This document shows, one piece after another, positions 9,001-15,000 of a DNA stretch of 15,922 bases. Made by a program: the position numbers. The stretch lies in the UHGV virus genome UHGV-0144335, one strand, 5' to 3'. How positions within the stretch are numbered: position 1 is the first letter of the stretch; every line of letters starts with the position of its first letter. The DNA comes from a virus.

Positions 9001-12000
9001 ACAACTTCTTGACGTGATATGCCTCAGTGACGGTAGTGCAGTCAGACCATTATCCCGGGAGGTGCTGGATGCGCAGTATCCTGAGTGGCTCACAATGAAG
9101 GGCATTCCTGAATGTTTTATCAGCAACGACCTGTCCCCGCGCGTATTCTGGCTGTTTCCTGCTCCTGACAAAGAGATAAGTATTGATGCAGTGGTAAGCC
9201 GGATACCGGAGGCAGTGTATGTTCTGACGCAGGACGATGATACGCCAGTTCCACTGGAAGATGCTTATGTTAACCCACTGGTGGACTGGATGTTGTTTCG
9301 CGCTTTCAGTAAGGATGCTGCCGGTGGCGCAGAATCGGGGCTGGCTGCGCAGCATTATCAGAGTTTTGTTGAGCAACTTGGGATCAAACAGGGGGCAGAC
9401 AGTGCATTGTCTGCCCGTAAAAAAGTGTTTAACGGAGGTGGAGTGTGAGTGTTGTTGTTTCGGGGACGCTGAAATCTCCTGATGGTGAGGCGATATCAGG
9501 AGCAAATATTACCCTGACGGCGCTGACAGTTTCACCGGATGCGCTCAGCGGCACCAGTGCGTCGGCAGTGACCCGTGAAGGTGGATATTACGGAATGACG
9601 ATGGATCCGGGGGAGTATGCGGTTTCGGTGACGGTGAAAGGGAAGACTGCTGTCTACGGACGTGTGCGTATTGAGGGGACCGAAAGTACGGTGACGCTCA
9701 ATATGCTGTTACGCCGCAGTCTTGTTGAGGTGAGCATACCCGGAGAACTGCTGACAGATTTCCGGCAGATACAGAATAATGTGGCTGATGACCTTGCCAC
9801 TATTCGTCGCCTGAATGAAGACACGGCGACAAAAAACACTCAGGCCACACAGTCAAAAGACAGTGCAGCAGCCAGTGCGAAGAGTGCATCTGACAGTGCA
9901 AAGACGGCAACCAGCAGGGCGGCTGAAGCCGGACAAAAAGCCAGTGAAGCTGCAGAAGCGGCGACCCGGGCATGCGAGTCTGAAAAGGCCGCGGCAGCAG
10001 ACGCGAATGATGCCAGACAACATGCTGAAACCGCCAGAGTGGCTCATGAGGCCGCCGGAGACGTTCTTAAACGTGCTGAGGCTGCTACGGTTAGTGCTGA
10101 AGAGGCCAGGCGTATGGCAGAGAATGCCAGAGGCCCTAAAGGTGATACCGGACCGAAAGGTGATGCAGGCCCTCGTGGAGAAACAGGTCCACAAGGCGCA
10201 CAAGGACCACGCGGTGAAACAGGACCGGTGGGGCCGCAAGGAGAGCGGGGGATTCAGGGGCCTGCTGGTCCACGAGGTGAAACCGGGGCCAGAGGTGAAA
10301 AAGGAGCCCCCGGAGACCCGGGGGGACCACCCGGGCCGAAAGGTGATGCGGGACCTAAAGGTGACACCGGACCAGCCGGTCCCGCAGGTGAAAAAGGTGA
10401 GCCGGGAGAACGAGGGCCTCAGGGAGAGCAGGGGCTACGCGGACCTGCAGGAGAGAGAGGCCCGGCGGGGCCGCAGGGACCGAAAGGAGATGCCGGTGCG
10501 ACAGGTCCGGCAGGTCCGAAAGGTGAACGAGGCGAAGCTGGGCCTCAGGGCCCCCGCGGGGAGCCTGGTCCGGCGGGCAGCGCAGCAAATGTGGTGGACG
10601 CGACGACGGCACAGAAGGGAATTGTGCAGCTAAGTAGTGATACTGCCAGTAATGACGAAACAAAGGCTGCCACGTCGAAGGCTGTGAAGGCGGCAATGGA
10701 TGAGGCCAAGGCGGCGAGACAGAAGGCAGAAGAGGTTGCTGCAGGTGGTGGCGTTCCCGGCCCGAAGGGAGACAAGGGCGATACGGGTCCGGCAGGCCCA
10801 CAGGGACCGAAAGGGGATACGGGAGCTGCAGGGCCGGCAGGTCCTCAGGGACCTAAAGGGGATGCGGGAGCTGCAGGCCCGGCAGGGCCACAGGGACCGA
10901 AAGGGGATACGGGAGCTGCAGGGCCGGCAGGTCCTCAGGGACCTAAAGGGGATGCGGGAGCTGCAGGCCCGGCAGGGCCACAGGGACCGAAAGGGGATAC
11001 GGGAGCTGCAGGGCCGGCAGGGCCACAGGGACCGAAAGGGGATGCAGGAGCCGCAGGTCCGGCAGGACCACAGGGACCATCCGGAAGCCCTGACAACGGG
11101 CTGTTTGGTGTCGGTTCTTTTGTTCTTGCGGCGTATTACCAGACGTTTTATTCGGGGGACCGTGCCCCTGGCTCAACTGTTGCCGGGTCATCACTGTCTG
11201 CATGCTGCCTTTCGAATGGTACTCCCCTGGTTGCTTCCGGTAATGTGGGGGAGACCCGTTTACCGGGCACGTGGCGTGCATGTGGTCCGATGCTATGGAC
11301 ATCATCTCCGGGTATCAGACAGGCAGGATTATTTCAGCGCATATCATAGAGGAGGTCATGGTGGATAAGGGAAAAGAGATTCTTGCAGTACGAAATGCAG
11401 CCAGCAACGAATATGGCGGGATAAACTGTGAGGTGCAGTTTGAAGACGCGGTGAATGAAAAAGGGGAACAGGTATGGCTGCCGTATACTGCAACGGAAAC
11501 GGATAATACAGAACACGGAAAAGCATTGTGGTCTGGGCTGACAGCAGGAACGTACGGAAGTGTGAGTGCCTTTGTCGCCACGGAAGCAGTACTGGAAGCG
11601 GCAAAAGCGGCGAAAAGGGAAGAGATTAATATCTGGCGTGATGTGCAGGAGAATATGGAATACATGATGGAATTCAACGGAAGGAACTGGGATTACGGCA
11701 AGAAGACGTTGTCCAGGATAAGCATGACACGCCTGATGGCAGAGAATAACCGTCTTCCGGAAGGTTTTGCCTGGACCGACGGGGATAATAATGTGGTGCC
11801 GGTGACGGCGGCAGACATCATAGCCCTGTCGGATGCGACAGAGCAGGCGATGTTTGCGAAGGGGGTGGAGATTAATACACGGCAGTTGCAGATGAAAGCC
11901 GAGGTTGAGGCGCTGACAGACCTGAAGGCGATCCGCAGTTATGTTGTCGGATGGCCTGCTGGCTGAATAAAAAAAAACGGGACCACGGCCAGTCCCGATG

Positions 12001-15000
12001 TAATGAGTTTTAGGGTATTAGTTTGTTATCATAGTTAGCGTGCTAAGTATACCATATCAGGCTGATTAGTGAAGTGATGTTGTTCGCATTTTTGCACGGC
12101 GGAGAATATTCAGATTTTTGGAAATCCATATTTTTCCCGTGCGCGATTACATGCTTCATTTACGATGCCATTTTCGCCGGACATTGCGAATTCCCTGCAT
12201 GTGGACGGGCGGTAAGAGCGACTCCTGTACGGGTTGACGTCGTGAAATTGTGCCGGGATTAATTATTCCACCTCGTCTGCCATTCAAATTTTCGGATACC
12301 AGATAACCATGCCTTATATCGATATAACCACTATGCGCGGGATGATGCCAGGCGTTATTGCATCTATGCTTCCTGATAATGCTGCTGTACTGGCAGAAAA
12401 CTGTCATTTTCGCTATGGCGTGATCACGCCTGAACACGAGATGTCAGAGGTTGAGAAAACATTCACAATTAAGCCAAAAACAATTTTTCATTACCGTGAC
12501 GATTTTTGGTTTGCATGGCCGGATGTGGTGGATGTGATCCGCAGTCCGATCGCTCAGGACCCCCACGGGCGTATTTACTACACTGACGGGCGTTTTCCTA
12601 AAGTGACGGATGCGACCATTGCCACAAAAGGGGACGGGAATCACCCGACATCATCGTATCGTCTTGGGATCCCCGCGCCGACGACAGCTCCTGTCTGTAC
12701 TGTTCAGCAGGGCGGTGATGTTTCTGACGATAACCCGAATGATGATGAAACCCGGTTTTATACGGAAACCTTTGTCTCAGATTATGGTGAAGAAGGTCCG
12801 CCAGGTCCGGCGTCTCTGGAGGTAACACTCCGTACTCCGGGAACTGCGGTACAACTGACGCTGGCTCCGGTGCCATTGCAGAATGCCAGTATTAAACGTC
12901 GCCGGATTTATCGCTCTGCATCAGGTGGAGGGGAGGCGGATTTTTTACTTGTGGCTGAACTGGATGCATCCGTGCTCAGTTACACGGACAAAATACCGGC
13001 GAAAAACCTTGGGCCTTCCCTGGCGACATGGGATTACCTGCCGCCGCCAGAGAATATGACAGGCCTTTGCCTGATGGCTAACGGTATTGCCGCCGGGTTT
13101 GCCGGTAATGAAGTGATGTTTTCGGAAGCGTATCTGCCGTATGCATGGCCGGAAGTGAATCGTCACACGACGGCAGAAGATATTGTAGCTATCTGTCCGC
13201 TGGGAACGTCACTGGTGGTGGCGACAAAGGGGGAGCCTTATTTGTTCAGTGGGGTATCACCGTCCACAATTTCTGGTTCCAAAATCCCTTCCATGCAGGC
13301 ATGCCTGAGCCGAAGAAGTATGGTGGCGATGGAGGGATTCGTGCTGTATGCAGGAACAAATGGCCTGGTATCGGTTGATGCAGGCGGCAGTACAGCCGTG
13401 GTAACGGAAAAAATCATTTCACCAGAACAGTGGCAGAGTCAGTTTAATCCGTCGTCCATTGTGGCTTACTCATGGCGTGGTGAGTACATTGCCTGTTACA
13501 CGAAACCTGATGGTAAGCAGGATGTGTTTGTCTTCAGCCCGGTGAACATGGATATCCGCTATCTCAGTACACCGTTTGACTGCGCATGGGTTGATCTCGC
13601 AAAAGATATGATGCGCGTGGTGACAGGAGACAAAATGTCAGTGCTTGCCGGGGGCTCTCTGCCGTCCACGATAAGGTGGCATTCAAAAATTTTTTCATTG
13701 CCTGAAAGAACCTCTTTTTCCTGTATCAGGGTGAAATCTCCAGCACCTGAGCGGGTGGGGATCACCGTTATGGCTGATGATGTTCCTGTTATTCATTTTG
13801 CGCCGGGTACGTTTAAGGGAAGTGTGGTGAGACTTCCGGCAGCAACCGGGCAAAACTGGCAGGTGATGGTATCCGGATTTGGGCAGGTGGAACGAATAAC
13901 CCTGAGTACATCGATGTCGGAGTTACCGATATGAGCAAAAAACCGTGGCGGGCGGGGAAGGATTTATCCGCTGTTGTGGAAAATATGGAAATTGGCACCG
14001 GGCAGCGTGGCGACGGTCGTCATGCTTTTGTGACCCGTGAAGAGCTGGTTGGCCTTAAACTTGCCCGACGTCGTACACAGGGTGGTGCGGGTACCTCATA
14101 TGCACTGAATCCAGGAGTTGACATTGACAGCACCTTAATGGTTGTTGATTTTCCCACAAAACCACTGAATTTTAAGGCGACCGGAGGATTTGGTTCAGTT
14201 CTTCTGGAATGGGATGTGGCCAATTATCGGGGGCATTCACTGACAGAAATCTGGCGGGGAACGAAGGACGACCTTTCAGATGCTGTGCTGGTTGCCACGA
14301 CACCGGGGCAGGTTTATGGTGATCCGGTTGACCCGGGCTGGTCGGGATTTTACTGGATACGCTTTGTCAATGCAGCGGGAGTGAAGGGGCCGTGGCACGC
14401 AGTGGCAGGCGTGGCAGCACAGACACAGATATCAGTTCAGGCGGTGATTGACCAGATAAAAGAAGAGGCGGCGAAGTCTCCCGTCATAGAAGAGCTTCGC
14501 AAGGAAATAAAAAACGCGCAGGGGCAGGCTGTAAAGGATGCGGCAATTAAGACAACCGAAGTTGTGGGGGCTCTCAGGGAGGAAACGACAAGAACGATTG
14601 GTGGTATTGAAACCCGCATAACCACACTGGATTCGTCAACCAGTGAATCGCTTAATGAGGTCGACAAGCGCATCACTAAACTGGATAAAGAAGGCGGTGA
14701 GGCCTTCCTTGCGATGTGGTCAAAAAAAGCGGGAGTTGATGGCATCACTGCGGGGATCGGGATTGTCGCCGGAAAAGACAGTGAAGGCAGGCCTGTAAGT
14801 CAGGTTGCAATTTCTGCGTCGCAGTTGTTTGTCTTTGACCCGAATAATCCGGATAACACAGCCTATCCGTTTGCGGTATCAGGTGGCAAGGTAGTGATCC
14901 CGAAAGCGATGATTTATGACGCGGTGATTGAAACACTGGTGTCGCGGAAGGTTGTGGCGGATGAGGTAAAAGCTGGGGTAAGTATCACTTCGCCAGTTAT

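Follow-up and report, generated by a model that had tools for sequence, protein, structure and literature searches.

A probable recombination scar, with a relic ykgJ end and a leftward terminator, next to the distal tail-fibre module of a 933W-like prophage

The stretch of DNA analysed here, from virus genome UHGV-0144335, is 15,922 nucleotides (nt) long (termed the window). It covers the late region, with the structural genes, of a short-tailed, 933W-like prophage of the Shiga toxin (Stx) type, subfamily Sepvirinae. Between the distal tail-fibre module and the next gene of the phage backbone, at positions 11967–12308, lies a segment with a terminator-like hairpin on the strand opposite to the flanking genes. 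The segment is most probably (estimated probability about 0.8) a recombination scar, in which the relic 3′ end of a ykgJ-like gene and its terminator were imported together with the distal fibre module. A preliminary description, made from the sequence alone, treated the segment as a spacer. It is not empty, as it holds a pseudogene remnant on the minus strand (12110–12229) in addition to the predicted terminator.

About 86% of the window length aligns at 91%–94% identity to GER2, Ss-VASD, P13374 and 933W, among others, and the long open reading frames (ORFs) of the window are all on the plus strand. Locus labels used below are: L001, lambdoid prophage of Escherichia coli O104:H4; L003, E. coli NMBU-W12E19; L004, P13374; L005, 933W; and L010, phiSTEC1589. 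The features that make up the putative scar are:

10786–12213, plus strand: putatively imported block consisting of distal fibre, DUF4376 gene, terminator and ykgJ remnant (blastn, 96.99% identity to L001 positions 2587–4013)
11969–11997, minus strand: predicted intrinsic terminator, with a hairpin at 11997–11978 (8-pair stem, 4-nt loop) ahead of U9 (11977–11969)
11998–12109, minus strand: predicted 3′ untranslated region (3′UTR) of the ykgJ-like gene, 112 nt, A/T-rich (36.6% GC), with no structure predicted for the minus strand
12110–12229, minus strand: 3′ remnant of a YkgJ-family gene; 12211–12113 correspond to amino acid (aa) positions 77–109 of 109, the stop codon is at 12112–12110, and 12229–12212 hold a few further degraded codons
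12213/12214, no strand: point within the ykgJ remnant at which 45 bp, present in the ES5 and O104:H4 copies, are deleted
12225/12226, no strand: right-hand junction where ykgJ homology ends (GAGCGAC/TCCTG), placed by alignments
12226–12276, no strand: filler of 51 bp, containing a TTGACG...GATTAA promoter candidate (12234–12262)

A ykgJ remnant on the minus strand

The GC content over 11967–12308 is 43.9%, compared with 52.4% for the whole window, in agreement with the AT-rich character given in the preliminary description. Much of the segment is accounted for by the ykgJ remnant and its 3′ flank. In a tblastn search, aa positions 77–109 of YkgJ display 85% identity to an intact prophage copy (E-value = 1.5e-15) and 80% identity to the K-12 protein (E-value = 2.5e-14). 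At the DNA level, positions 12126–12207 show 79% identity to the chromosomal ykgJ present in approximately 3,400 E. coli genomes. The 39-aa remnant gives no match in Pfam or NCBIfam, and for this reason its assignment to YkgJ rests on the tblastn and DNA similarities. The NCBI Prokaryotic Genome Annotation Pipeline (PGAP) labels the same remnant as a pseudogene of a YkgJ family cysteine cluster protein in L001–L003.

The window lacks codons 1–76 of ykgJ, which include the start codon and the CxxCxxCC cluster, as well as the promoter, and the longest in-frame ORF in the remnant is 24 aa. Because homology ends at 12225/12226 and a further 45 bp are missing internally, the sequence is taken to be a pseudogene remnant and not a gene of the YkgJ family (Pfam PF03692 type). 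The same 45-bp deletion is found in NMBU-W12E19, L020 and L028. In L021–L034, the segment equivalent to the deleted 45 bp carries a G-run of varying length within the ykgJ remnant; this could be a slippage-prone sequence or an assembly error.

The pattern of base changes relative to K-12 also bears on the coding strand. The ratio of synonymous to non-synonymous changes is 17:7 in the minus-strand ykgJ frame and 3:20 in the frame of a 62-aa ORF with a GTG start (12074–12262, plus strand) that lies antisense to the remnant. As the changes are mostly synonymous in the minus-strand frame only, it is this strand that has the coding history. The 62-aa plus-strand ORF, which has no Pfam or NCBIfam match, is considered spurious. 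Small plus-strand ORFs of this type are annotated in phages 1720a-02 and phiSTEC1589. Neither the ORF at 12074–12262 nor similar small ORFs in phage records should be annotated as genes.

The minus-strand terminator

When read on the minus strand, positions 11969–11997 appear to constitute a strong intrinsic terminator, as judged by anatomy. The arms of the stem are CGGGAC (11978–11983) and GTCCCG (11992–11997), and the A9 run is at 11969–11977 (plus-strand coordinates). The preliminary description had given a stem and U-tract in minus orientation, with A9 ahead of the stem and no U-tract on the plus strand, and the sequence confirms these coordinates. The U-run stops 2 nt from the stop codon of the DUF4376 gene, and the predicted terminator is located 112 nt 3′ of the stop codon of the ykgJ remnant, on the same strand. 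Copies in relatives that are otherwise almost identical have A-runs of differing length, A6 to A10.

Both strands were scanned with a strict terminator rule (a stem of 6 bp or more, including 4 or more G-C pairs, and 7 or more T). The site at 11969–11997 is the sole one in the window that passes on either strand, and no such site occurs in any of 200 shuffles. In addition, the A9 run is the only A or T run of 8 or more in the 15.9 kb. The earlier view that this is the only canonical stem with a U-tract is overstated, since terminator-like hairpins with T5–T6 are present on the plus strand directly after the 714-aa, 404-aa and 129-aa ORFs (4910–4935, 7312–7329 and 7752–7770), within the late operon. 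Folding of both strands, which had been proposed as a check, gives a minus-strand hairpin of −11.6 kcal/mol (five G-C pairs, one A-U and two G-U); the folding z-scores of 51-nt pieces are modest, −1.5 for the minus strand and −0.9 for the plus strand.

On the plus strand, the sequence past the stem reads ATGTAATGAGTTTTAGG, and its continuation is also given as ATGTAATGAG and AUGUAAUGAG. There is no U-tract and at most 3 T in 8 bases, and the terminator scan did not call the hairpin at 11978–11997 on this strand. A bidirectional terminator, one of the possibilities raised in the preliminary description, is consequently not supported. Late transcription in 933W-type phages is Q-antiterminated. 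The hairpin is probably not a terminator on the plus strand, and late transcription should pass through it to the 541-aa gene that follows. It would still halt a leftward RNA polymerase in its present place, with no gene of its own to serve.

Counterparts in lambdoid prophages

In lambdoid prophages, a copy of ykgJ is found in leftward orientation, convergent with the DUF4376 gene. This copy is intact in some cases, e.g. L008 (109 aa), but often carries a frameshift, as do the full-length copies of L006 and L007. Directly after the DUF4376 stop codon, L006 has a leftward terminator, GGGGGATGGTTTCTCCCCC followed by T7, whose stem is unlike that in the window. L007, 1720a-02 and phiSTEC1589 have a leftward terminator in the same place, ATGGGGGAGGTGATGGTCCCCCAT followed by T5, whose stem also differs from that in the window. 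That position and orientation are kept while the sequence differs is good evidence for a working terminator that closes a leftward unit. As the terminator abuts the DUF4376 stop codon, leftward transcription would end before it can run antisense into the fibre genes.

The 3′UTR and the terminator are kept together in 58 of 5426 E. coli genomes, and the DUF4376 gene adjoins them in every case. A derivation of the 3′UTR and terminator from a chromosome of the K-12 type carrying ykgJ was considered and rejected; the 3′ flank of K-12 ykgJ is unrelated and has no terminator-like site. Some prophages (L008, L009) display the order fibre, DUF4376, leftward ykgJ, a dinI-like gene and integrase beside the boundary with the host. 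Instead of being a lone cargo gene, ykgJ may thus form the end of a leftward int-dinI-ykgJ region.

The suggestion in the preliminary description that the hairpin marks the 3′ end of a leftward RNA is borne out as regards its origin, as the terminator of a ykgJ-like gene, but what is present now would be a relic. With the first 76 codons and the promoter of the ykgJ-like gene gone, a present-day leftward transcript is doubtful and the leftward unit is presumably inactive.

The imported block and its breakpoints

The genes that flank the terminator and the remnant are:

9445–11349, plus strand: tail fibre, 634 aa, with collagen-like repeats, 5′ of the terminator region
11295–11966, plus strand: DUF4376 protein gene, 223 aa (Pfam PF14301, E-value = 1.2e-16; annotated by PGAP in L001, L002 and L006–L008)
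12277–12308, plus strand: backbone leader of the 541-aa gene, common to P13374-type (Oslovirus) phages
12309–13934, plus strand: 541-aa structural gene, homologue of 933W L0124 and P13374 ORF67, the first backbone gene past the variable slot described below

The DUF4376 gene has its TGA stop codon at 11964–11966, and no other plus-strand gene comes after it in the imported block. Its product appears to be a tail-fibre accessory or chaperone-type protein; DUF4376 has been listed as a tail-fibre chaperone in Alteromonas phages and is common to distant phages (PMC10579305).

The donor-like match to the block, L001, is the right end of the O104:H4 lambdoid prophage. It consists of a side-tail-fibre gene, the DUF4376 gene, and a frameshifted ykgJ that faces DUF4376. 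Similarity to the backbone (933W, P13374 and NMBU) ends at approximately 11014–11078, within collagen-like repeats common to both fibre types, and resumes at 12277 (P13374 type) or at 12309 (933W). The junction at 12225/12226 is common to the window, ES5 and NMBU, and the lambdoid copy in L001 runs on past this point into the rest of ykgJ. A mosaic junction, which the preliminary description had put forward as one possibility, is thus supported: the 97% lambdoid block, the break in the backbone, the end of ykgJ homology at 12225/12226 and the different cassettes of 933W and P13374 all point to it. In the alignment of relatives that had been suggested as a check, the breakpoints fall here and the spacer is not colinear.

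The stretch that separates the distal fibre cassette from the 541-aa gene (termed the slot) is occupied by L0122 and L0123 in 933W, by a gp38-like gene in P13374, and by another version of DUF4376 in phiSTEC1589. As the relatives are non-colinear and carry differing cassettes, the slot is considered variable and prone to recombination. One example, NMBU-W12E19 (L003 positions 3265–4406), shows what can remain after an exchange. It has a gp38-like gene followed by approximately 630 bp of non-functional DNA, and the latter contains the final 200 nt of DUF4376 together with the terminator and ykgJ remnant that are found in the window. The presence of these sequences behind a gp38-like gene indicates that the scar has outlived a further cassette swap.

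In the P13374 spacer 5′ of ORF67 (L004, approximately 4115–4170), 55 nt align to the end of the ykgJ remnant (its final codons with the stop codon), and none of 500 shuffles gives as good an alignment. The same vestige is carried by phiSTEC1589 (L010, approximately 3143–3160). From its sequence, this vestige appears to be an older ykgJ scar in the same slot.

An origin of the filler (12226–12276) in the P13374 spacer was considered and rejected. The similarity is not significant, as 103 of 500 shuffles score as well. The filler contains the weak sigma70-like candidate noted in the preliminary description. Its elements (TTGACG at 12234–12239, a 17-nt spacer and GATTAA at 12257–12262) are located as described, but the quality is at chance level. 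It has 8 of 12 consensus matches, and the −10 element lacks the key T at position 6. Thirty such sites are found on the plus strand, compared with 31 ± 7 in shuffles. The TTGACG...GATTAA segment is absent from P13374 and 933W.

Proposed origin and alternative explanations

It is proposed that a 933W-like (Sepvirinae) prophage exchanged the distal part of its tail-fibre cassette for the matching module of a lambdoid prophage, i.e. the fibre C-terminus and its DUF4376 partner. The left crossover would have taken place in the collagen-like repeats that both fibre types have. In the lambdoid source, DUF4376 would have been followed by a convergent, leftward cargo gene, a captured copy of the chromosomal ykgJ. 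The terminator, the 112-nt 3′UTR and the last 33 codons of ykgJ would have been brought along with the import, and the right-hand crossover at 12225/12226 would have removed the remainder of ykgJ together with its promoter. A later deletion of 45 bp would have shortened the remnant further. The terminator anatomy, the nature of the remnant, the block homology with its breakpoints, and the repeated occurrence in other lambdoid prophages of a terminator placed and oriented alike but with an unrelated stem are observed in the sequences, and the present-day inactivity is an inference.

Several observations weigh against this origin in its simplest form. The filler at 12226–12276 is not accounted for by this origin and is found only in the 17 E. 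coli genomes that share the junction. The terminator and approximately 130 nt of 3′UTR are kept intact after DUF4376 in lambdoid prophages that lack ykgJ. This is seen in L013–L016 (at ompW, tRNA-Ser, the zinT side and yecE), where ykgJ is wholly lost and homology stops where the ykgJ stop codon used to be, or only a few bases away. Retention without ykgJ could mean that the terminator and 3′UTR have a role of their own, and there may be a residual leftward transcript. In addition, the same slot in 933W and phiSTEC1589 carries leftward terminators of unrelated sequence, and this could mean that a leftward stop is selected for in the slot and did not simply hitch-hike.

The last two points lead to alternatives in which the terminator is, or was, more than a passenger. 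It is very unlikely, although the slot terminators invite the idea, that the site is a selected insulator, i.e. a leftward terminator kept to stop antisense transcription from, or beyond, the 541-aa gene entering the fibre genes, or a bidirectional one that also ends some late transcription. The terminators in question are at L005 positions 4142–4122 in 933W (9-bp stem and T6) and at L010 positions 2725–2748 and 2976–2996 in phiSTEC1589. The close spacing of the U-run and the DUF4376 stop codon would suit an insulator, as would the survival of the terminator through successive cassette swaps, e.g. in NMBU-W12E19. Each slot terminator is, however, explicable as baggage of an imported convergent unit, and P13374 has no terminator in its slot. 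Moreover, there is no convincing leftward promoter rightward of the terminator within the window, and the bidirectional version fails for want of a U-tract on the plus strand past the stem. The slot genes of 933W and phiSTEC1589 near these terminators are all annotated rightward.

A live small RNA (sRNA) gene is also quite unlikely. The former 3′UTR would in this case have become, or would always have been, an independent regulatory RNA: a leftward transcript of approximately 72 nt, starting at about 12039–12041, with an unstructured C/A-rich body and ending in the hairpin and U9 (an Hfq-type 3′ end). A weak promoter candidate can be aligned with such a start:

12046–12073, minus strand: promoter-like site, weak candidate (TTCACT, 16 nt, TATACT, with TG upstream)

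This site (12073–12046) has 9 of 12 matches and TG ahead of the −10 element. The TG, the A at position 2 and the T at position 6 of the −10 element are invariant across all aligned copies. A near-palindrome, TTAGCGTGCTAA (12035–12046), which overlaps the −10 element and the would-be start, is likewise invariant in all of the more than 20 aligned 3′UTR copies. The predicted lack of structure in the body, the strong terminator with its long U-run, and the retention of the terminator and approximately 130 nt beside DUF4376 in prophages without any ykgJ are also in keeping with an sRNA. Several results nevertheless weigh against an sRNA. The consensus first T of the −10 element is a single nucleotide polymorphism private to the window type, the other copies reading CATACT, CATAGT, CATGAT and CATAAT, and the window shows no excess of promoter-like sites (9, where 12.7 would be expected by chance). 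The copies are 80%–99% identical, so that conservation is uninformative, and the stem has no compensatory change within the family. A motif scan of viral contigs yielded 16 close copies, with divergence too small for covariation analysis. The more distant 3′UTR homologues L006 and L007 have neither the palindrome nor the promoter spacing. Rfam gives no family at gathering score or at E < 0.5. The scans covered the whole window (gathering score), positions 11850–12450 (E ≤ 10) and six related loci, and hits were at chance level only, the best being sbrA (E-value = 0.53). A search of species-representative genomes with the invariant 3′UTR motif gave only three unrelated chance matches, in Campylobacter metagenome-assembled genomes, and the hairpin sequence was not found in the literature searched.

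The remaining alternative, that the hairpin lies beside an A-run by chance, in ordinary DNA between genes, and never was a terminator, is extremely improbable. It would be in line with the modest folding z-scores. Set against it are the absence of a comparable site from all 200 shuffles, the uniqueness of the A9 run in the window, the position of the hairpin 3′ of the stop codon of the ykgJ remnant, which is recognisable as a minus-strand gene, and the occurrence at the equivalent spot in other lambdoid prophages of a different hairpin and T-run in the same orientation.

The recombination scar is therefore preferred. A possible, although rather unlikely, extension of it is that the ykgJ-derived sequence and leftward terminator form a recurrent boundary element of the distal fibre cassette. 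Vestiges of the ykgJ 3′ end, differing in age, are present in three or more 933W-like lineages (P13374, phiSTEC1589 and the window type). They would then supply right-hand homology for exchange of the receptor-binding module between lambdoid siphophages and 933W-like podophages, the left crossover being in the collagen-like repeats. In a variant, the block of terminator and approximately 130 nt would encode a small leftward RNA. A boundary element, if true, would explain in concrete sequence terms how lambda-like and 933W-like phages exchange fibres; the data in hand can be explained without it.

Relation to known systems

Segments derived from ykgJ-ecpE have been described at the ends of lambdoid prophages in Shiga toxin-producing E. 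coli (STEC), and the intergenic part of these segments is used there as a secondary site of attachment (Nakamura et al. 2021, PLoS Pathog, PMC8112680). The window resembles these in having a captured piece of the ykgJ region beyond the tail-fibre genes, such pieces being often degraded and approximately 80%–84% identical to the chromosomal locus. The published work concerns the 96-bp attB-in-PP_2, located in the ykgJ/ecpE intergenic part upstream of ykgJ. Nothing in the window matches this intergenic part, and the match to K-12 ykgJ is confined to 82 bp of its 3′ coding sequence. The attB-in-PP_2 site is absent because the window retains only the last 33 ykgJ codons and the 3′ flank. A further difference is that the window has a 933W-like podophage backbone and not that of a lambdoid siphophage.

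The hairpin shares with Rho-independent terminators of convergent genes, e.g. those of a moron facing the late operon, a G+C-rich stem, a long U-run and a position just short of the convergent gene. It differs in that the gene served is truncated and promoterless, in that it is now placed between two co-directional plus-strand genes, and in being unidirectional. The arrangement as a whole is similar to tail-fibre cassette exchange between unrelated tailed phages, in which a receptor-binding module and its chaperone move jointly; in this case the distal fibre and its DUF4376 partner would have moved together, with the left crossover in collagen-like repeats. The only unlike feature is that a non-functional flank (the ykgJ remnant and terminator) came along and persisted. 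The candidate sRNA resembles AsxR and AgvB (Tree et al. 2014, PMC4104026) and the Pas sRNAs (bioRxiv 10.64898/2026.05.13.724894) in its short unstructured body, strong terminator, long U-run and location at a prophage cargo site. However, AsxR, AgvB and the Pas sRNAs are encoded in the PR′/Q/lysis region, whereas the candidate in the window follows the fibre genes and has no Rfam match.

The feature is real but, as a recombination scar, it is an ordinary one. The remnant already carries an annotation in sister genomes, and a ykgJ-derived prophage segment is already in the literature. Its identification does account for an odd AT-rich spacer with a wrong-way terminator as a gene remnant with its own terminator, marking the right edge of a swapped receptor-binding module. 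This edge helps to delimit the part of the fibre locus that sets host range in 933W-like Stx prophages.

Other features of the window

The 541-aa gene gives no match in Pfam or NCBIfam. A tail-tip fibre gene is also located 3′ of the terminator region, with the 541-aa gene.

Within the predicted 634-aa fibre gene, the zone of collagen-like repeats at 10050–11100 is very G+C-rich (60%–70% GC) and displays a strong skew of A over T. In the region 11271–11368, the final part of the fibre ORF, which ends at 11349, is shared with a 222-aa ORF in a different frame (10700–11368) and with the start of DUF4376 (11295). The fibre gene is annotated as frameshifted in ES5.

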